Both the position numbers and the translations under genes were made by a program. The notes under the pieces are model-generated. The model was given only the letters and a program-made list of their open reading frames with translations, did no database searches and had not been told where the DNA came from. Shown here in pieces: positions 1,331 through 9,280 of a DNA stretch of 9,636 nucleotides. Source of the DNA: a virus (taxonomy: Duplodnaviria; Heunggongvirae; Uroviricota; Caudoviricetes); the IMG/VR virus record IMGVR_UViG_2529292736_000006, one strand, 5' to 3'. The first letter of the stretch is position 1. Each line of letters starts with the position of its first letter.

Positions 1331-1345
1331 GCTTTTTTATACTAA
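1331..1345. other. attL: Prophage attachment site attL, 15-bp common core (GCTTTTTTATACTAA)
   Basis: Exact lambda att core sequence read at 1331-1345. Bacterial B-arm sequence (gttgaagcct) on the ybhC side and phage P' arm on the int side, which is the B-O-P' arrangement expected for attL. Confidence 0.9.
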
Positions 1346-1422
1346 GTTGGCATTATAAAAAAGCATTGCTTATCAATTTGTTGCAACGAACAGGTCACTA
1401 TCAGTCAAAATAAAATCATTAT
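1346..1422. promoter_or_regulatory. attL P' arm: IHF H' site and Int arm-type sites P'1-P'3
   Basis: TATCAATTTGTTG at 1371-1383 fits the IHF consensus WATCAANNNNTTR. Tandem arm-type repeats AGGTCACTAT / CAGTCAAAAT / AAAATCATTAT lie at about 1392-1421, matching what I recall of the lambda P' arm. The sites run into the int stop codon as in lambda. Confidence 0.75.
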
Positions 1423-2489
1423 TTGATTTCAATTTTGTCCCACTCCCTGCCTCTGTCATCACGATACTGTGATGCCATGGTGTCCGACTTATGCCCGAGA
1501 AGATGTTGAGCAAATTTATCGCTTATCTGCTTCTCATAGAGTCTTGCAGACAAACTGCGCAACTCGTGAAAGGTTGGCGGATCCCCTTCGAAGGAGAGAC
1601 CTGATGCTTTTCGTGCGCGCATAAAATACCTTGATACTGTGCCGGATGAAAGCGGTTCACGACGAGTAGATGCAATTATGGTTTCTCCGCCAAGAATCTT
1701 TTTGCATTTATCAAGTGTTTCCTTCATTGATATCCCGAGAGCATCAACATGCAATGTTGTTGGGATGGCAATTTTTACGCCTGTTTTGCTTTGCTCGACA
1801 TAAAGATATCCATCTACGATATCAGACCACTTCATTTCGCATAAATCACCAACTCGCTGCCCGGTAACAACAGCCAGTTCCATTGCAAGTCTAAGCCAAC
1901 ATGGTGATGATTCTGCTGCTTGATAAATTTTCAGGTATTCGTCAGCCGTAAGTCTTGATCTCCTTACCTCTGATTTTGCAGCGCGAGTGGCTGCGACCGG
2001 GTTTGTTGTTATATGGCCTTCAGCCATAGCCTCTCGGAATGCATCGCTCAGTGTTGATCTGATTAACTTGGCTGATGCCGCCTTTCCCTCGTCTATGTAT
2101 CCATTGAGCATTGCCGCAATTTCTTTTGTGGTGATGTCTTCAAGTGGAGCATCAGGCAGACCCCTCCTTATTGCTTTAATTTTGCTCATGTAATTTATGA
2201 GTGTCTTCTGCTTGATTCCTCTGCTGGCCAGGATTTTTTCGTAGCGATCAAGCCATGAATGTAACGTAACGGAATTATCACTGTTGATTCTCGCTGTCAG
2301 AGGCTTGTGTTTGTGTCCTGAAAATAACTCAATGTTGGCCTGTATAGCTTCAGTGATTGCGATTCGCCTGTCTCGGCCTAATCCAAACTCTTTACCCGTC
2401 CTTGGGTCCCTGTAGCAGTAATATCCATTGTTTCTTATATAAAGGTTAGGGGGTAAATCCCGGCGCTCATGACTTCGCCTTCTTCCCAT
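1419..2489 (-). CDS. int: Lambda integrase Int (tyrosine recombinase, 356 aa)
   Basis: 356-aa ORF whose translation (MGRRRSHERRDLPPNLYIRNNGYYCYRDPRTGKEFGLGRDRRIAITEA...DKIEIK) I recognise as lambda Int. The stop lies 81 bp from the att core centre, as in lambda, and the start overlaps xis. Confidence 0.97.
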   Translation of the reverse strand: MGRRRSHERRDLPPNLYIRNNGYYCYRDPRTGKEFGLGRDRRIAITEAIQANIELFSGHKHKPLTARINSDNSVTLHSWLDRYEKILASRGIKQKTLINYMSKIKAIRRGLPDAPLEDITTKEIAAMLNGYIDEGKAASAKLIRSTLSDAFREAMAEGHITTNPVAATRAAKSEVRRSRLTADEYLKIYQAAESSPCWLRLAMELAVVTGQRVGDLCEMKWSDIVDGYLYVEQSKTGVKIAIPTTLHVDALGISMKETLDKCKKILGGETIIASTRREPLSSGTVSRYFMRARKASGLSFEGDPPTFHELRSLSARLYEKQISDKFAQHLLGHKSDTMASQYRDDRGREWDKIEIK

Positions 2490-2685
2490 TTCTGATCCTC
2501 TTCAAAAGGCTACCTGTTATTGGTCGATTTAAGTCAACCTTTACCGCTGATTCGTGGAACAGATATTCTCTTCCATCCTTAACCGGAGGAGGGAATATCT
2601 TGCATTCGCGCACCCATCGACGAACTGTTTCAAGGCTTCTTGGGCGTCGCTGGCGAGCGTTCCACTCCTGAAGTGTCAAGTACAT
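2467..2685 (-). CDS. xis: Lambda excisionase Xis (72 aa)
   Basis: 72-aa ORF MYLTLQEWNARQRRPRSLETVRRWVRECKIFPPPVKDGREYLFHESAVKVDLNRPITGSLLKRIRNGKKAKS, recognised as lambda Xis. Its 3' end overlaps the int start by 23 nt as in lambda. Confidence 0.95.
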   Translation of the reverse strand: MYLTLQEWNARQRRPRSLETVRRWVRECKIFPPPVKDGREYLFHESAVKVDLNRPITGSLLKRIRNGKKAKS

Positions 2686-2711
2686 CGCAAAGTCTCCGCA
2701 ATTACACGCAA

Positions 2712-2732
2712 GAAAAAACCGCCATCAGGCGG
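2712..2732 (-). terminator. Candidate intrinsic terminator between the orf55-like gene and xis
   Basis: On the minus-strand transcript: 5-bp GC stem (GCCGG/CCGCC, plus-strand 2719-2723 and 2728-2732), 4-nt loop, then a U6 tract (plus-strand A6 at 2713-2718). The stem is short and it overlaps the orf55 stop codon. Confidence 0.45.
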
Positions 2733-2892
2733 CTTGGTGTTCTTTCAGTTCTTCAATTCGAATATTGGTTATGTCTGCATGTGCTATCTGCGCCCATATC
2801 ATCCAGTGGTCATAGCAGTCATTGATGTTCTCTGCTTCGATAACTCTGTTGAATGGTTCTCCATTCCATTCACCTGTGACTCGGAAGTGCAT
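2725..2892 (-). CDS. Small hypothetical protein (55 aa), same size and spacing from xis as the 55-codon ORF I recall downstream of xis in lambda
   Basis: ATG at 2892 to TGA at 2725-2727, found by manual translation (MHFRVTGEWNGEPFNRVIEAENINDCYDHWMIWAQIAHADITNIRIEELKEHQAA). It is absent from the supplied track because it is under the length cut-off. GGAG lies 5-8 nt upstream of the ATG and the gap to the xis start is 40 bp. Confidence 0.7.
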   Translation of the reverse strand: MHFRVTGEWNGEPFNRVIEAENINDCYDHWMIWAQIAHADITNIRIEELKEHQAA

Positions 2893-2902
2893 TTATCATC
2901 TC

Positions 2903-2930
2903 CATAAAACAAAACTCGCCGTAGCGAGTT
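2903..2930 (-). terminator. Candidate rho-independent terminator downstream of the 142-aa accessory gene
   Basis: On the minus-strand transcript: 7-bp stem (AACTCGC/GCGAGTT, plus-strand 2913-2919 and 2924-2930), 4-nt loop, then UUUUGUUUUAU. It sits 45 bp after the 142-aa ORF stop and just upstream of the orf55 ribosome-binding site. Confidence 0.5.
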
Positions 2931-2974
2931 CAGATATAATTTCCACCAAAGGCAGTAGTTGCTGATGCTAAGAA

Positions 2975-3403
2975 TTATTCAATATCTATTCCTGTAATAT
3001 CTTTTATCTTTTTCCTTGCAAAGCCTTTTGCTAGTGATTTTGAAACACTTATTAGTGTACTAATTCCCTCATCCTTAAAGTTTGTTTTTATAGTTTGCCA
3101 GACCTCCTTTTGACGCAAGTCAGCAATAAAATCATGCCCTCTTGCTGTCAACCTCAGTGGTACTTCGATCCAACTATATCCAACACCTTCCCCTAACTCG
3201 TTGGACATTATATGACCGAACCCAGGTTTTCCATCAACCCTGACTATTAATTCGTAGTCGCATAATAATCGCATATGGAAAATAAAATTTTGGTCATATC
3301 TATTAAAGCCATTATCCTCTAGTTCACTAAGCATCGTGTCAGGGCCATGAGTTTTTTCGAATGCGATAAGTAGATCTTTTAGATATTGCTGGTCTAATTT
3401 CAT
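2975..3403 (-). CDS. Hypothetical 142-aa protein, AT-rich accessory gene (moron); function unknown
   Basis: ORF with ATG at 3403 and TAA at 2975-2977, with a strong GGAGG ribosome-binding site 5 nt upstream. Composition is visibly AT-rich compared with the flanking lambda-like genes. I do not recall it in lambda at this position. A tentative resemblance to small phage DUF2513-type proteins (a ...LTARGHDFIADLRQKEVW... motif) is from memory only. Confidence 0.8.
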   Translation of the reverse strand: MKLDQQYLKDLLIAFEKTHGPDTMLSELEDNGFNRYDQNFIFHMRLLCDYELIVRVDGKPGFGHIMSNELGEGVGYSWIEVPLRLTARGHDFIADLRQKEVWQTIKTNFKDEGISTLISVSKSLAKGFARKKIKDITGIDIE

Positions 3404-3413
3404 TGCCGCCTCC

Positions 3414-3425
3414 GTGACATGTCAC
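3414..3425. promoter_or_regulatory. Perfect 12-bp palindrome GTGACATGTCAC (candidate operator or protein-binding site)
   Basis: Read directly at 3414-3425. It lies in the 28-bp gap between the Ea8.5-like stop and the 142-aa gene start codon, immediately upstream of its ribosome-binding site. A 5-bp stem with a 2-nt loop is too tight for a stable RNA hairpin, so a DNA-binding site is more likely. Confidence 0.3.
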
Positions 3426-3431
3426 AGAGAT

Positions 3432-3770
3432 TTATATCATTAATTTTGTTTCGTGCCAGCCTTTGGTCACCCAGCATTGTGAGTCACCATTACACGGGCA
3501 TGAATTAACAGGAACTCTCTCGCCGCACTTACCGCAACGTTTTCTGCTGATCGATTTTATACGCCAGCGCACACGTGCATCATCCTGGCGGCTCAGTAAC
3601 GCGATGTACTCACCAAACTCGTAAGGCGCATGCCTGAAGCGGCGCGTGGCTCAGTTACGATCCAGCATTTCAATTTCCTGAGCATCAAGTACAAGCTCCA
3701 GCTTACGCATACCGGATGATGCTTGCTTGGCTCTCTGATCGACTTTGCGCTCTGCTGATGATTTAGCCAT
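3432..3770 (-). pseudogene. Ea8.5-like ORF (N-terminal helical segment plus C-terminal Cys-rich zinc-ribbon-like segment) interrupted by an in-frame TGA
   Basis: A single minus-strand frame reads MAKSSAERKVDQRAKQASSGMRKLELVLDAQEIEMLDRN, then TGA at 3651-3653, then ATRRFRHAPYEFGEYIALLSRQDDARVRWRIKSISRKRCGKCGERVPVNSCPCNGDSQCWVTKGWHETKLMI and TAA at 3432-3434. Candidate starts are ATG 3770 and ATG 3710; the latter gives about 92 codons, close to the 93-aa lambda Ea8.5. Position relative to xis/orf55 and the two-part architecture suggest an Ea8.5 homologue. This is an inference, not a sequence identification. Confidence 0.45.
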
Positions 3771-3963
3771 TCTGCTTTTCCTGCATTAGGAGAAAGACAA
3801 TCATGGCGGCGCGGATACTTCCGGTATCTTTTTACTCGATATTACCCTTCAATGGCACATACAAGAAGAGAGCCATCAACAGGAGTGAGTGAGGAATCGA
3901 CAACCAGCAACGCTTAATTATCTATAGTGTCGTATTTGCTTCATAAAATATGGCGAATAACAC

Positions 3964-3998
3964 AAAGCCCGCAGCAGCTCATTGTGCGGGCTTTTCTT
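3964..3998. terminator. Strong hairpin terminator, possibly bidirectional, downstream of the 204-aa gene
   Basis: Perfect 10-bp stem AAAGCCCGCA / TGCGGGCTTT (3964-3973 and 3985-3994) with an 11-nt loop. The plus strand is followed by CTTTTCTTAT and the minus-strand reading by UUUGUGUUAUU. It lies about 65 bp downstream of the 204-aa ORF stop. Confidence 0.5.
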
Positions 3999-4063
3999 AT
4001 ACATACTTCCTAGAGATAATTCTATGGAGGCATTAAATTAATACTGTCATTGGTAATATCATA

Positions 4064-4678
4064 TTATCTAAAAGTCTTTCCACTTTTAACGTCTAGGTAT
4101 ATTCTGTTCGACAACGTCATTCCTCCGCAATATGTGAAATAGATGTTTTTCCCCTTATTGCTTGATGCCATCCACCCTCCGATTTCCTTAAAGTCGCTTT
4201 CCGTGCAGACCCCTTCGTTTATTAACTTCCTAGCTGCCGAAGAAAACTCTTTTTTGTATATACGGTAGTCATCAGATCCTTTGATTAAAGTATCATCTCC
4301 GCTCGCATTTTCAGCAGGATCTGATGGCCTTTCACTGCTAAGATCACTAAGTTTAACCCATTCTGAAAACTTGCCATTGACGATTCCGTTTTTTCTTGTG
4401 CAGGATTTATTACCTTCTTTAATATATTCGCTTTCCCCTCCCACACATGAGGCTGAATATGGCTCAGTTATACGAACCCATTCACCTTTTTTTTCTAGAA
4501 AATCTACGCCTTCCCTGAAAAATAGTTTCCCAGCCACTCCGCATTTACTTGAAGGGCAGGTATGTCTTTCCGTTCGATCAACAACAACCCAAAGTCTTGA
4601 TTCATTTTTTGCCATTGCCGATGGTATTTGAGATGAGACAATTAACGTAAGCCCTAAAATTAGTATTGATTTTTTCAT
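4064..4678 (-). CDS. Secreted or periplasmic Cys-rich hypothetical protein (204 aa), AT-rich accessory gene (moron); function unknown
   Basis: ORF with ATG at 4678 and TAA at 4064-4066; AAGGA ribosome-binding site 7 nt upstream. The N-terminus MKKSILILGLTLIVSSQIPSAMA-KNE looks like a Sec signal peptide with an AxA cleavage motif and no lipobox Cys. The mature part has 7 Cys and the gene is AT-rich. Confidence 0.85.
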   Translation of the reverse strand: MKKSILILGLTLIVSSQIPSAMAKNESRLWVVVDRTERHTCPSSKCGVAGKLFFREGVDFLEKKGEWVRITEPYSASCVGGESEYIKEGNKSCTRKNGIVNGKFSEWVKLSDLSSERPSDPAENASGDDTLIKGSDDYRIYKKEFSSAARKLINEGVCTESDFKEIGGWMASSNKGKNIYFTYCGGMTLSNRIYLDVKSGKTFR

Positions 4679-4763
4679 TGTAATTTCCTTTTACTTTTTA
4701 CAAAGCGTTTAATCATGGCTGATTATCTTTAAGCGTAGTAACAGCCTTGTGCGAAACATGTTA

Positions 4764-4768
4764 CCAAA
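4764..4768. repeat. IS2 target-site duplication CCAAA (left copy)
   Basis: CCAAA directly abuts the IS2 terminus at 4769 and is repeated at 6100-6104. Confidence 0.85.
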
Positions 4769-4779
4769 TGGATTTGCCC

Positions 4780-5685
4780 CTATATTTCCAGACACCTGTT
4801 ATCACTTAACCCATTACTGGCCTGCTGCCGCAGATATTCCCGTGGCGAGCGATAACCCAGTGCACTATGCGGATGCCATTCGTTATAATGCTCGAACGCC
4901 TCTGCAAGGTTCTTTGCTGCCGTTAACCCGTCTGGTTTAGGCATGATACTGATGTAGTCACGCTTTATCGTTTTCACGAAGCTCTCTGCTATGCCGTTAC
5001 TCTCCGGACTCCGCACCGCCGTGTTCTTCGGTTCAAGCCCCAACATCCGGGCAAACTGCCGTGTTTCATTAGCCCGGTAGCATGAACCATTATCCGTCAG
5101 CCACTCTACTGGAGACGCCGGAAGCTCGTTGCCGAAGCGGCGTTCCACCGCTCCCAGCATTACGTCCTGTACTGTTTCACTGTCGAAGCCGCCCGTAGTG
5201 ACTGCCCAGTGCAGTGCCTCACGGTCACAGCAGTCCAGCGCGAACGTGACTCGCAGTTTTTCTCCGTTATCACAGCGGAACTCGAACCCGTCAGAGCACC
5301 ATCGTTGATTGCTTTCTTTCACGGCCACTTTGCCAGTATGTGCCCGTTTCGATGGCGGTACAGCGGTTTTTCGCTCAAGCAACAGCGCATTCTGGCGCAT
5401 GATCCGGTAAACACGTTTGGCATTGATCGCAGGCATACCATCAAGTTCGGCCTGTCTGCGAAGCAGCGCCCATACCCGACGATAACCATACGTGGGCAGC
5501 TCTCCGATAACATGGTGTATACGGAGAAGCACATCCGTATCATCTGAGTGACGGCTGCGGCGACCATCTTTCCAGTCATCGGTTCGTCTGAGAATTACGT
5601 GCAACTGCGCACGCGACACCCGGAGACAACGGCTGACTAAGCTTACTCCCCATCCCCGGGCAATAAGGGCGCGTGCGCTATCCAC
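4780..5685 (-). CDS. insD: IS2 transposase OrfB (InsD, DDE integrase-like domain; normally expressed as an OrfAB fusion)
   Basis: 301-aa ORF ([34 protein letters not shown]...NRCLEI) recognised as IS2 InsD. It overlaps orfA in the -1 frame. Confidence 0.9.
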
Positions 5686-6008
5686 TTTTTTGCACGCCCG
5701 TATTCAACGGCTTCTTTAAGGAGTTCATTTTCCATCGTTTTTTTGCCGAGCAGGCGCTGGAGTTCTTTAATCTGCTTCATGGCAGCAGCAAGTTCAGAGG
5801 CAGGAACGACCTGCTCTCCTGCGGCCACAGCAGTAAGACTTCCCTCCTGGTATTGCTTGCGCCAGAGAAATAACTGGCTGGCTGCCACACCGTGTTGCCG
5901 GGCAACAAGGGAGACCGTCATTCCCGGTTCAAAACTCTGCTGAACAATAGCGATCTTTTCCTGTGTAGTACGCCGTCTGCGTTTCTCCGGTCCTAAGACA
6001 TCAATCAT
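5643..6008 (-). CDS. insC: IS2 OrfA (InsC, helix-turn-helix regulator, 121 aa)
   Basis: [56 protein letters not shown]... with ATG at 6008. The track's 136-aa version starts at an upstream in-frame ATG inside the inverted repeat and is probably not used. Confidence 0.9.
5685..5691 (-). other. IS2 A6G slippery motif for programmed -1 frameshifting (OrfA to OrfAB)
   Basis: AAAAAAG on the minus strand (plus-strand CTTTTTT at 5685-5691) in the orfA/orfB overlap, where IS3-family elements frameshift. Confidence 0.6.
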
Positions 6009-6099
6009 CTGCTCTCCAATGACTAGTCTAAAAACTAGTATTAAGACTATCACTTATTTAAGTGATATTGGTTGTCTGGAGATTCAGGGGGCCAGTCTA

Positions 6100-6104
6100 C
6101 CAAA
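6100..6104. repeat. IS2 target-site duplication CCAAA (right copy)
   Basis: Identical 5-mer directly abutting the other IS2 terminus. Confidence 0.85.
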
Positions 6105-6312
6105 TCGCCATTTCAGTGTATCCGCAGTTAGGCTGCCACTTCAAGGATTCCTAATTACATGGTACGTAAGCGTAAAATCCCGTTGGTTGTCGGGTAATAA
6201 CTCTGATCAAATCTCCCTTGTCTTTTGCTCTTACGTATGCAGCTCTTGTGTATTCAACCCAGGCCTCCAGTTCAGCAATACGCTTACTTCCATCCGAGAT
6301 AACACCTTCTAC
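6100..6312 (-). other. Protein-like in-frame continuation of the Ea22-like ORF beyond its TGA (disrupted C-terminal part)
   Basis: Same frame as the 83-aa ORF. After TGA (6313-6315) it reads VEGVISDGSKRIAELEAWVEYTRAAYVRAKDKGDLIRVITRQPTGFYAYVPCN, then TAG (6151-6153), then ESLKWQPNCGYTEMAIW up to the IS2 junction. No ATG or GTG start occurs in this stretch and the other two frames are closed. Confidence 0.45.
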
Positions 6313-6564
6313 TCACGCTGCTCGTTGAGTTTTGATTTTTGCTGTCTCCAGCTCAACACGCAGTTTCCTCACCGTTAGCGCAATATCCTCGTTCTCCTGG
6401 TCGCGGCGTTTGATGTACTGCTGGTTTCTTTCCCGTTCATCCAGCAGTGTCAGCACAATCGATGGTGTTACCAGCTCATGGAAAAGGTCCGCGTCAAATC
6501 CCCAGTTGTCATGCATTGCCTGCTCTGCCGCTTCACGCAGTGCCTGAGAGTGAATTACGCTCAC
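6313..6564 (-). CDS. Ea22-like N-terminal segment (83 aa as a conventional ORF; coiled-coil-like)
   Basis: ORF MSVIHSQALREAAEQAMHDNWGFDADLFHELVTPSIVLTLLDERERNQQYIKRRDQENEDIALTVRKLRVELETAKIKTQRAA. Its start overlaps the upstream TraR-like gene stop by 4 nt (ATGA). Its position relative to exo, orf60a and orf63 matches where I recall lambda ea22 starting. Confidence 0.6.
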   Translation of the reverse strand: MSVIHSQALREAAEQAMHDNWGFDADLFHELVTPSIVLTLLDERERNQQYIKRRDQENEDIALTVRKLRVELETAKIKTQRAA

Positions 6565-6782
6565 TTCGAACCTCTCTGTTTACTGATAAGTTCCAGATCC
6601 TCCTGGCAACTTGCACAAGTCCGACAACCCTGAACGGCCAGGCGTCTTCGTTCATCTATCGGATCGCCACACTCACAACAATGAGTGGCAGATATAGCCT
6701 GGTGGTTCAGGCGGCGCATTTTTATTGCTGTGTTGCGCTGTAATTCTTCAATTTCTGATGCTGAATCAATGATGTCTGCCAT
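6561..6782 (-). CDS. TraR/DksA-family C4 zinc-finger protein (73 aa)
   Basis: MADIIDSASEIEELQRNTAIKMRRLNHQAISATHCCECGDPIDERRRLAVQGCRTCASCQEDLELISKQRGSK. A CxxC...(17)...CxxC motif with a preceding helical segment is typical of phage and plasmid TraR-like proteins. Confidence 0.8.
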   Translation of the reverse strand: MADIIDSASEIEELQRNTAIKMRRLNHQAISATHCCECGDPIDERRRLAVQGCRTCASCQEDLELISKQRGSK

Positions 6783-6830
6783 CTTTCATTAATCCCTGAA
6801 TTGTTGGTTAATACGCTTGAGGGTGAATGC

Positions 6831-6858
6831 GAATAATAAAAAAGGAGCCTGTAGCTCC
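6831..6858 (-). terminator. Weak candidate intrinsic terminator after the 93-aa ORF
   Basis: On the minus-strand transcript: 5-bp stem GGAGC/GCTCC (plus-strand 6844-6848 and 6854-6858), 5-nt loop, then UUUUUUAUUAUU. The stem is short. Confidence 0.3.
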
Positions 6859-6880
6859 CTGATGATTTTGCTTTTCATGT

Positions 6881-7162
6881 TCACCGTTCCTTAAAAACGC
6901 CGTTTAACATGCCGATTGCTAGGCTTAAATGAGTCGGTGTGAATCCCATCAGCGTTACCGTTTCGCGGTGCTTCTTCAGTACGCTACGGCAAATGTCATC
7001 GACGTTTTTATCCGGAAACTGCTGTCTGGCTTTTTTGATTTCAGAATTAGCCTGACGGGCAATGCTGCGAAGGGCGTTTTCCTGCTGAGGTGTCACTGAA
7101 CAAGCCCCATGTCGGCAAGCATAAGCACACAGAATATGAAGCCCGCTGCCAGAAAAATGCAT
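6881..7162 (-). CDS. Hypothetical 93-aa protein in the orf61 / ea22-orf63 interval
   Basis: ORF MHFSGSGLHILCAYACRHGACSVTPQQENALRSIARQANSEIKKARQQFPDKNVDDICRSVLKKHRETVTLMGFTPTHLSLAIGMLNGVFKER. It is the only long frame here. Its relationship to lambda orf61 could not be settled from memory. Confidence 0.55.
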   Translation of the reverse strand: MHFSGSGLHILCAYACRHGACSVTPQQENALRSIARQANSEIKKARQQFPDKNVDDICRSVLKKHRETVTLMGFTPTHLSLAIGMLNGVFKER

Positions 7163-7172
7163 TCAGTGGTTG

Positions 7173-7364
7173 TCATACCTGGTCTCTCTCATCTGCTTCT
7201 GCTTTCGCCACCATCATTTCCAGTTTTTGTGAAAGGGATGTGGCTAACGTATGAAATTCTTCGTCTGTTTCTACTGGTATTGGCACAAACCTGATTCCAA
7301 TTTGAGCAAGGCTATGTGCCATCTCGATACTCGTTCTTAACTCAACAGGAGATGCTTTGTGCAT
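7173..7364 (-). CDS. orf63: Lambda orf63-like protein (63 aa)
   Basis: [63 protein letters not shown]. Sequence and position (overlapping orf60a and lying upstream of exo) match my recollection of lambda orf63. Confidence 0.8.
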   Translation of the reverse strand: MHKASPVELRTSIEMAHSLAQIGIRFVPIPVETDEEFHTLATSLSQKLEMMVAKAEADERDQV

Positions 7365-7519
7365 ACAGCCCCTCGTTTATTATTTATCTCCTCAGCCAGC
7401 CGCTGTGCTTTCAGTGGATTTCGGATAACAGAAAGGCCGGGAAATACCCAGCCTCGCTTTGTAACGGAGTAGACGAAAGTGATTGCGCCTACCCGGATAT
7501 TATCGTGAGGATGCGTCAT
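7337..7519 (-). CDS. orf60a: Lambda orf60a-like protein (60 aa)
   Basis: [60 protein letters not shown]. The ATG at 7519 overlaps the exo stop as ATGA, suggesting translational coupling. The track's 62-aa version uses an ATG two codons upstream. Confidence 0.8.
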
Positions 7520-8196
7520 CGCCATTGCTCCCCAAATACAAAACCAATTTCAGCCAGTGCCTCGTCCATTTTTTCGATGAACTCCGGCACCATCTCGTCA
7601 AAACTCGCCATGTACTTTTCATCCCGCTCAACCACGACATAATGCAGTCCTTCACGCTTCATACGCGGGTCATAGTTGGCAAAGTACCAGGCATCTTTAC
7701 GTGTCACCCACATGCTGTACTGCACCTGGGCCATGTAAGCCGACTTTATGGCCTCGAAACCACCGAGCCGGAACTTCATGAAATCCCGGGAGGTAAACGG
7801 GCATTTCAGCTCAAGGCCATTGCCGTCACTGCATAAACCATCGGGAGAGCAGGCGGTGCGCATACTTTCGTCGCGATAGATGATCGGGGATTCAGTAACA
7901 TTCACGCCGGAAGTGAATTCAAACAGGGTTCTGGCGTCGTTCTCGTACTGTTTTCCCCAGGCCAGCGCCTTAGCATTAACTTCCGGAGCCACACCGGTGC
8001 AAACCTCAGCCAGCAGGGTGTGGAAGTAGGACATTTTCATGTCAGGCCACTTCTTTCCTGAGCGGGGCTTTGCTATCACGTTGTGAACTTCTGAAGCGGT
8101 GATGACGCCGAGCCGTAATTTGTGCCATGCATCATCCCCCTGTTCGACAGCTCTCACGTCGATCCCGGTACGCTGCAGGATAATGTCCGGTGTCAT
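7516..8196 (-). CDS. exo: Lambda exonuclease (Red alpha, 226 aa)
   Basis: 226-aa [65 protein letters not shown]...GFVFGEQWR, recognised as lambda Exo. The start overlaps the bet stop by 4 nt. Confidence 0.97.
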
Positions 8197-8978
8197 GCTG
8201 CCACCTTCTGCTCAGTGGCTTTCTGTTTCAGGAATCCGAGAGCTTTCACTGCTTCGACCTGTGTCAGTTCTGACGATGCGCGAATGTCGCGGCGAAATAT
8301 CTGGGAACAGAGCGGCAATAAGTCGTCATCCCATGTTTTATCCAGGGCAATCAGCAGAGTGTTAATCTCCTGCATGGTTTCATCGTTAACCGGAGTGATG
8401 TCGCGTTCCGGCTGACGTTCTGCAGTGTATGCGGTATTTTCGACAATGCGCTCGGCTTCATCCTTGTCATAGATACCAGCAAATCCGAAGGCCAGACGGG
8501 CACACTGAATCATGGCTTTATGACGTAACATCCGTTTGGGATGCGACTGCCACGGCCCCGTGATTTCTCTGCCTTCGCGGGTTTTGAATGGTTCGCGGCG
8601 GCATTCATCCATCCACTCGGTAACGCAGATCGGATGATTACGGTCCTTGCGGTAAATCCGGCATGTGCAGGATTCATTGTCCTGCTCAAAGTCCATGCCA
8701 TCAAACTGCTGGTTTTCATTGATGATACGGGACCAGCCATCAACGCCCACCACCGGAACGATGCCGTTCTGCTTGTCAGGGAAGGCGTAAATTTCTTTCG
8801 TCCACGGATTAAGGCCGTACTGGTTGGCGACGATCAACAATGCGATGAACTGCGCATCGCTGGCATCGCCTTTAAATGCCGTCTGGCGAAGAGTGGTGAT
8901 CAGTTCCTGTGGGTCGACAGAATCCATGCCGACACGTTCAGCCAGCTTCCCAGCCAGCGTTGCGAGTGCTGTACTCAT
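8193..8978 (-). CDS. bet: Lambda Beta recombinase (Red beta, single-strand annealing protein, 261 aa)
   Basis: 261-aa [69 protein letters not shown]..., recognised as lambda Bet. Confidence 0.97.
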
Positions 8979-8983
8979 CCGTT

Positions 8984-9280
8984 TTATACCTCTGAATCAA
9001 TATCAACCTGATGGTGAGCAATGGTTTCAACCATGTACCGGATGTGTTCTGCCATGCGCTCCTGAAACTCAACATCGTCATCAAACGCACGGGTAATGGC
9101 TTTTTTGCTGGCCCCGTGGCGTTGCAAATGATCGATGCATAGCGATTCAAACAGGTGCTGGGGCAGGCCTTTTTCCATGTCGTCTGCCAGTTCTGCCTCT
9201 TTCTCTTCACGGGCGATCTGCTGGTAGTGACGCGCCCAGCTCTGAGCCTCAAGACGATCCTGAATGTAATAAGCGTTCAT
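8984..9280 (-). CDS. gam: Gam (RecBCD inhibitor), N-terminally truncated to the 98-aa GamS-equivalent by an IS insertion
   Basis: From ATG at 9280 the frame reads [60 protein letters not shown]...VDIDSEV, which matches lambda Gam from Met-41 onward. Sequence upstream of 9280 is not lambda-like and belongs to the IS21-family end. The track's 131-aa ORF (GTG start at 9379) is a read-in fusion with IS sequence. Confidence 0.85.

Follow-up and report, generated by a model that had tools for sequence, protein, structure and literature searches.

Here we describe the interval between orf55 and the ea22-like gene in the left arm of a lambda-like prophage, as found in a stretch of viral DNA of 9,636 nucleotides (IMG/VR record IMGVR_UViG_2529292736_000006, the whole of which we refer to as the window). 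The interval is ordinary mosaic cargo in a stretch of the lambdoid exo-xis region already known to vary, and the particular genes that fill it are newly described. Two of these genes are intact and AT-rich: one encodes an exported protein of 204 amino acids (S204), the other a cytoplasmic protein of 142 amino acids that belongs to the family DUF2513. Two further pieces, a regulator gene of 112 codons (R112) and a umuD-like fragment, are wrecks. Taken as a whole, the best explanation, and in our judgement a probable one, is that this known slot was filled by a mosaic and that the two intact genes do not function as a pair.

In lambdoid phages, both the number and the type of exo-xis genes downstream of ea22 vary, and pL drives their early transcription (PMC8614690); the literature on this region describes gp05 of phi24B, encoded in the same slot, as a predicted winged helix-turn-helix (wHTH) protein. 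A first-pass annotation, made from the letters of the window, had rated the interval the most promising part of the window for an undescribed system and had speculated that its two AT-rich genes work together. Neither view stands: the joint presence of the two genes proved to be linkage within one E. coli cassette, and the interval proved to consist of unrelated pieces, two intact cargo genes and two wrecks, in a slot whose variability was known. Nothing indicates a role of the interval in superinfection exclusion, anti-restriction or defence, a guess that derives from its position.

A replaced segment in a variable slot of the left arm

Alignment with lambda (blastn) defines the replaced segment and places the accessory DNA in the early-left arm. 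Two collinear blocks enclose it, lambda 27724-29333 at window 1331-2940 (97.8% identity) and lambda 30094-33112 at window 6266-9280 (97.5%), in keeping with the earlier description of the flanks as lambda-like. The lambda DNA that is missing measures 760 bp (29334-30093) and comprises ea8.5 (29334-29655) and the 3' part of ea22. The replacement is 3325 bp long including the insertion sequence IS2 and ~1.99 kb without it. Exchanging 760 bp of lambda for ~1.99 kb of non-IS DNA thus gives a net gain of ~1.23 kb, which matches the excess of about 1.2 kb beyond IS2 first estimated. The prophage occupies the attachment site of lambda, with the end of ybhC at 1284 and the start of lambda homology at 1331 (lambda 27724); window 1331-1345 corresponds to the att core (lambda 27724-27738). 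Since the core adjoins ybhC, the prophage sits at the classical lambda attB and the window contains one prophage-host junction.

Both open reading frames (ORFs) reported at first pass are intact and AT-rich, with 36.1% GC in the DUF2513 gene and 39.3% in the S204 gene; the window as a whole has 48.1%, and exo and bet have ~52.7%. The base composition of the two genes therefore deviates from that of their flanks (36-39% against ~48-53% GC) in the way by which morons are recognised. The interval shares its position between ea22 and xis, its strand and its place downstream of pL with the variable part of other lambdoid exo-xis regions, represented by ea8.5 and orf55 in lambda and by extra genes such as gp05 in phi24B and 933W. 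Its genes, however, differ from ea8.5, fall into other PHROGs and show no BLASTP similarity to it. The DUF2513 protein has no tblastn match at E<=1e-5 in phi24B or 933W, and S204, DUF2513 and R112 are absent from the exo-xis literature that we found.

An IS2-free version of the same arrangement is carried by Escherichia phage Chlobot (PP925838), a 46.5-kb phage isolated from puddle water whose int-to-gam DNA is 97.9% identical to that of the window (blastn); the cassette is thus carried by a live phage. Window 3439-3828, consisting of R112 and the DNA upstream of it, has ~90% nucleotide identity to epsilon15-like podophages (phiV10, TL-2011b and the O157 typing phages), and window 3808-3913 matches umuD-like genes of the P1-like phages D6 and PhiR41_1. 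These two matches together indicate that the cassette was put together from phages of other morphotypes. A literature search for DUF2513, the accessions WP_000748284 and WP_000762730, phrog_8310, phrog_585 and Chlobot returned no mention of any of them. As a separate observation, large plasmids of E. coli (145-454 kb) carry the whole cassette too, amid IS elements and together with int, xis and exo-xis remnants; it is present on pECO-cbb3 (NZ_CP026206.1) and in 10 other plasmid places.

S204 and the DUF2513 gene are linked in a single cassette

Among 5426 complete E. coli genomes, the S204 gene is present in 132, the DUF2513 gene in 183 and the whole 1871-bp block (at least 80% covered) in 131. 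The sole DUF2513-only genome inspected, that of E. coli TW10598, owes its condition to an IS1 deletion of the remaining block. Joint occurrence in E. coli comes from one cassette of ~96-100% identity and hence does not amount to independent co-occurrence. When S204, R112 and DUF2513 were searched by tblastn on 134 loci, S204 and DUF2513 were found jointly only in the E. coli cassette. None of ~15 diverged S204 loci (six of them matching by the C-terminal domain only) and none of ~70 diverged DUF2513 loci has the partner gene within ~6 kb: there is no DUF2513 near S204 in Pseudomonas monsensis and Aeromonas hydrophila, and no S204 at the DUF2513 loci of Serratia, Cronobacter and ~60 others. Diverged homologues in unrelated genomes thus do not show the co-occurrence of an operon-like functional pair.

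Clustering of neighbouring ORFs points the same way, with no S204 or DUF2513 partner common to more than 3-4 loci and none beyond closely related loci except R112, which accompanies DUF2513 in three genera. In PADLOC-DB v2, no family matches any of the four proteins at E<=1, which gives no sign of membership in a known defence system. The two intact genes remain of unassigned function, as annotated at first pass, with no PADLOC matches, no NCBIfam names and no literature mention of DUF2513, the accessions or the PHROG identifiers. Linkage of S204 and DUF2513 as a two-gene system is not supported.

S204, a probable exported protein with an unannotated C-terminal domain

S204 is probably secreted and is rich in cysteine, as the first reading of the sequence had proposed. 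It has a Sec-type N-terminus (MKKSILILGLTLIVSSQIPSAMA/KNES; the signal peptide was judged by eye, no predictor being used), followed by an SH3b-fold domain with four cysteines, an RPxDPA linker and a C-terminal domain of the order helix-helix-three strands with two cysteines. All six cysteines of the mature part occupy invariant or nearly invariant columns in an alignment of 39 homologues, which begin with a signal peptide or, in some cases, a lipobox or transmembrane (TM) segment. The C-terminal motifs SDD[YF], GGWxKS, YFTYCGG and NRIYLD are very strongly conserved in the same alignment. S204 matches phrog_8310, of unassigned function, over its full length, and its sequence is that of a 406-member NCBI cluster named 'hypothetical protein'; no Pfam family scores above its cut-off and no NCBIfam name applies, while some homologues carry PF08239 (SH3_3) in precomputed annotation. 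The AlphaFold2 (AF2) model has a pLDDT of 90, with residues 27-204 mostly above 90, and superposes in its SH3b part on solved SH3b domains.

Homologues of equal length (204 aa) and 60-69% identity are found in Pseudomonas and Aeromonas. That of Pseudomonas monsensis adjoins an integrase in a non-phage integrative island, and that of Aeromonas hydrophila lies in a prophage between antiterminator and lysis genes, a late-region cargo position. Among E. coli alleles, dN/dS is 0.06-0.21, indicating purifying selection; in two strains the gene is broken by IS1. From these dN/dS values, together with the length that homologues of both proteins keep across genera, we conclude that both ORFs are real genes.

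A profile of the C-terminal domain (residues ~120-204, window 4064-4324) was searched against 1.84 billion proteins in clusters at 50% identity and matches 529 cluster representatives at E<=1e-3, 400 of them at E<=1e-10. The domain is nearly always C-terminal in its proteins. It stands alone behind a signal peptide or lipobox (~100 aa), follows an SH3b domain, ends ankyrin-repeat proteins or proteins with an N-terminal zinc ribbon and TM segment, and is also found as a tandem duplicate and in fusions of ankyrin repeats, SH3b and the domain. With these architectures it constitutes an unannotated extracytoplasmic domain family. The domain has no Pfam entry, neither sequence searches with the domain nor fold searches with the whole model gave a solved relative, and no literature on it was found; we put it forward as a candidate new family entry.

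SH3b domains serve as cell-wall anchors of endolysins and NlpC/P60 hydrolases. Compared with the SH3b domains of endolysins, lysostaphin and NlpC/P60 hydrolases, S204 is without a catalytic domain, scores below the SH3_3 cut-off, has two extra disulfide-forming cysteine pairs in an insertion and adds the C-terminal domain described above. T4 Sp, phi80 Cor, T5 Llp and lambda Bor are small exported or lipid-anchored proteins, non-essential phage cargo that acts at the envelope; their likeness to S204 is one of lifestyle only, and no similarity of sequence or fold was detected.

The DUF2513 protein

The 142-aa protein has no hydrophobic N-terminus, which agrees with its first assignment to the cytoplasm. 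It matches DUF2513 (PF10711) over profile positions 1-100 of 100 with 42.9 bits (E 6.8e-11), above the gathering cut-off of 29.6 bits, and also matches phrog_585; no NCBIfam name was found for it. Homologues of 46-99% identity and nearly equal length occur across Enterobacterales and more distant ones far beyond, every homologue found carries PF10711, and 168 E. coli genomes have the gene intact. Two stretches hardly vary among 38 DUF2513 sequences across genera, the third helix (F[IV]FHMR[LI]LxD) and the wing region (PLRLT..GHDF), which suggests that the protein recognises a target that is itself conserved, and not an operator specific to one phage. It differs from winged-helix proteins of the MarR-PadR type in that no MarR or PadR Pfam model matches it and its wHTH half is acidic.

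The gene upstream varies within Serratia. In Serratia marcescens prophages, the DUF2513 gene is preceded at a distance of 19 bp by a 305-aa ORF with no Pfam match (4064-4981 of loci L016 and L017), and in Serratia liquefaciens the ORF in that place is a different one, of 120-125 aa and likewise with no Pfam match; in E. coli and Cronobacter the upstream neighbour is R112.

R112 and the umuD-like fragment are wrecks

The 46-aa ORF 3432-3572, which lies between the two intact genes, had been taken for an Ea8.5-like zinc-finger gene. It corresponds to the last 46 codons of R112, a phrog_536 gene disrupted by a nonsense codon. Undisrupted copies of R112 are found in phage Chlobot, E. coli FORC_042 and plasmid pECO-cbb3. 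The intact protein matches phrog_536 ('transcriptional regulator') at 7e-48; its basic N-terminus resembles a ribbon-helix-helix (RHH) domain, with a weak match to NF008671 (LexA-regulated protein YbfE, E 0.007), and its C-terminus is rich in cysteine. Lambda Ea8.5 is a hybrid of homeodomain and zinc finger. It belongs to phrog_6325, and BLASTP gave no alignment between it and the 46-aa ORF at E<=100; the lack of similarity and the different PHROG rule the ORF out as an Ea8.5 homologue.

Inactivation of R112 is frequent. Sixteen of the 36 full-length E. coli-type copies have TGA at codon 40 and one has a stop at codon 79, making at least 17 of 36 inactivated; four further loci (L090, L091, L106 and L114) give partial matches only. 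The TGA takes the place of a cysteine codon (TGT/TGC) and occurs in two diverged allele groups (loci L084-L128). In the TGA lineages dN/dS is ~1 and zinc-motif cysteines have been lost, locus L095 has a different stop, and no hairpin resembling a selenocysteine insertion sequence (SECIS) follows the UGA. These four observations rule out selenocysteine or readthrough at the TGA and indicate repeated decay of R112. In strain BR1220, PGAP tags R112 'internal stop' and labels the umuD-like fragment, which lies between R112 and the S204 gene, 'DNA repair protein, incomplete'.

Hairpins and expression

Each intact gene had been credited with a hairpin terminator of its own; a strong hairpin, a terminator candidate, does follow S204, and for DUF2513 the claim fails. 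The hairpin after the S204 gene is inside non-lambda DNA. The RNA fold of the 109 nt that include it (3955-4063) has z = -3.0, none of 200 shuffles being as stable, and the terminator scan calls it terminator-like on the plus strand as well. The hairpin downstream of the DUF2513 gene lies inside lambda-homologous DNA, where the boundary alignment gives lambda the same hairpin with one base different; it is a feature of the lambda backbone, outside the extra DNA.

A crude consensus scan of the coding strand, in the window and in the IS-free Chlobot, found no sigma-70-like promoter upstream of either intact gene. Of the promoter and terminator that a moron would bring along, the interval has a terminator-like hairpin after S204 and, in this crude scan, no sigma-70-like site. 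Given that no promoter was found and that exo-xis genes are read early from pL, readthrough from pL is the default, and the S204 and DUF2513 genes are most likely read from the early-left transcript like other exo-xis genes.

Discussion

In the explanation that we prefer, AT-rich pieces acquired independently of one another would have come to fill, as a mosaic, the slot between ea22 and orf55/xis, known to be variable, two of them as intact genes with separate functions and two as wrecks. S204 would reach the periplasm by export, with disulfides lending it stability and the SH3b domain tethering it to the cell wall, and its C-terminal domain may bind a conserved ligand or protein of the envelope. 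The consequence, at the level of a guess, might be an accessory function at the envelope for phage or lysogen, for example one that hinders incoming phages in penetrating the wall or that interferes with wall-degrading enzymes delivered from outside. The DUF2513 protein would be an early cytoplasmic wHTH protein directed at a conserved nucleic acid or host protein; its gene directly follows R112 in some prophages, and in the window R112 is a pseudogene.

Several points weigh against this explanation or parts of it. The loci on which co-occurrence was judged were gathered by pattern and word searches, no exhaustive survey being involved. The SH3_3 (PF08239) match of S204 amounts to 16.1 bits (E 0.013), below the 27-bit cut-off, which makes the SH3b assignment a purely structural one. 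SH3b ligands are, moreover, not limited to peptidoglycan, and a role of S204 in envelope protection would be guesswork from its modelled fold and its location. The wHTH half of the DUF2513 protein has an acidic pI of 4.8, uncommon among proteins that bind DNA, and its C-terminal helices have a basic pI of 9.5, so that binding of DNA is plausible but not assured. The crudeness of the promoter scan leaves expression in the lysogen neither shown nor excluded.

That S204 and DUF2513 constitute an undescribed two-gene system of phage-host conflict (defence, exclusion or anti-restriction) we judge very unlikely. The two genes do lie 660 bp apart on the same strand of the early-left arm, both are AT-rich and of unassigned function, and all but one of the 132 E. 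coli genomes with S204 hold the whole block. This linkage, however, is that of a single, nearly identical cassette, and the diverged homologues all lack the partner; two wrecked genes and a terminator-like hairpin stand between S204 and DUF2513, their products are assigned to different compartments, periplasm and cytoplasm, and PADLOC has no match. DUF2513 could instead belong with R112, the RHH-like protein with a Cys-rich zinc ribbon, in a regulatory or DNA-binding module to which S204 is unrelated and which the R112 stop has broken here. R112 lies immediately upstream of the DUF2513 gene, with a gap of 28 bp in the window and of 27-32 bp elsewhere, and this order is seen in the E. coli cassette, in Yersinia frederiksenii (identities of 47% and 65%) and in Cronobacter prophages, where the pair (62% and 64% identity) comes just ahead of the gene for the small terminase. 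Adjacency at different genome positions indicates that the pair moved as a unit. Yet most DUF2513 loci are without R112, including those of Serratia (73%) and Enterobacter mori (75%), phrog_536 occurs without DUF2513 in phiV10 and TL-2011b, the genes are 3.7 kb apart in Citrobacter murliniae, and DUF2513 stays intact where R112 has been inactivated, which makes such a module rather unlikely as the explanation.

Taken by itself, S204 might serve lysogenic conversion or fitness by acting on the envelope of its own host (tolerance of stress, colonisation of a host, or resistance to lysozyme or to wall-degrading effectors of the type VI secretion system, T6SS), with no link to other phages. Such a role would suit an exported protein with a wall-binding fold. 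It would also suit the homologues in the Pseudomonas island and at the Aeromonas late-region position, and a C-terminal domain found mostly in proteins without a phage link, ankyrin fusions included. We put its chances low, in that no promoter is predicted for expression in the lysogen and that searches of Pfam, NCBIfam and the PDB gave no similarity to known lysozyme inhibitors or immunity proteins. That the interval in its entirety is functionless DNA decaying in a defective prophage is extremely unlikely. Of the four gene-sized pieces, two are indeed wrecked, IS2 has entered the window and IS1 the S204 gene of two strains, and many carriers are degraded prophages, but the isolated phage Chlobot has the same cassette, S204 is under purifying selection with well-conserved homologues of equal length in other genera, and DUF2513 is intact in E. 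coli and across Enterobacterales. A bolder proposal, which we regard as doubtful, would make S204 the founding phage-borne member of an undescribed exported family (an SH3b anchor plus a disulfide-bonded C-terminal domain, more than 500 clusters) that protects the lysogen or infected cell at the wall step, for instance by blocking phage tail enzymes or muralytic effectors of T6SS or bacteriocins, with DUF2513, alone or with R112, as a host-directed early regulator.

Under the mosaic explanation preferred here, the interval is one further filling of a lambdoid slot known to be variable, and as such changes little. The C-terminal domain of S204 is of wider interest, being widespread, strongly conserved and extracytoplasmic; as it is present in Chlobot, a live and tractable lambda-like phage, it is cheap to test. 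DUF2513 is recurrent prophage cargo whose almost invariant recognition helix hints at a conserved host target. Should either gene affect superinfection or envelope resistance, this would provide a function for hundreds of 'hypothetical' genes.

Neighbouring features

On the minus strand the genes follow the order int, xis, orf55, the interval, IS2, the truncated ea22, a TraR/DksA-like gene, ORFs of the orf61/63/60a type, exo and bet (Table 1). No Rfam family was found in window 2400-6600 at E<=0.1. IS2, with ORFs of InsC/InsD type at 5643-6053 and 4780-5685, stands 90 bp ahead of the S204 start codon and thereby between pL and both intact genes. Its transposase genes share the strand of pL transcription, and the element may change expression of the S204 and DUF2513 genes, xis and int. 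The IS2 junction occurs in none of the 5426 complete E. coli genomes, which indicates that the insertion is private to this strain.

Table 1. Features of the interval and its borders, with window coordinates
Feature	Coordinates	Strand	Details and basis
orf55 (lambda NP_597778 homologue), left flank of the variable slot	2725..2892	-	phrog_676, 2e-39; lambda annotation; blastn
Intrinsic-terminator-like hairpin downstream of the DUF2513 gene	2912..2931	-	8-bp stem, U-rich tail; terminator scan
Replacement segment	2941..6265	-	Replaces lambda 29334-30093; blastn and boundary alignments with lambda
DUF2513 gene, intact, 142 aa	2975..3403	-	Winged helix-turn-helix, then three C-terminal helices; ORF list, Pfam
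R112 pseudogene, 112 codons, phrog_536	3432..3770	-	TGA at codon 40 (3651-3653); translation compared with intact Chlobot copy
umuD/humD-like internal fragment, 22 codons, wreck	3845..3910	-	87-91% nucleotide identity to D6 and PhiR41_1 genes
G+C-rich hairpin, terminator candidate	3964..3994	-	69 nt past the S204 stop, then UGUGUUAUU; RNA fold
S204 gene, intact, 204 aa	4064..4678	-	Signal peptide 1-23, SH3b-fold domain ~27-110, C-terminal domain ~125-204; ORF list
IS2, 1331 bp	4769..6099	-	Target duplication CCAAA (5 bp) at 4764-4768 and 6100-6104; junction sequences
Truncated ea22-like ORF, 83 aa	6313..6564	-	N-terminal coiled-coil part only; phrog_250/368; alignment with lambda

The gene named at first pass as the ea22-like flank is indeed ea22-like but survives as a truncated remnant, which PGAP labels 'ead/Ea22-like, frameshifted, incomplete'. 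Its C-terminal domain has been swapped for unrelated sequence (6100-6312), and the same is true of Chlobot. As ea22 is reduced in a live phage too, intact Ea22 is dispensable for this phage lineage.

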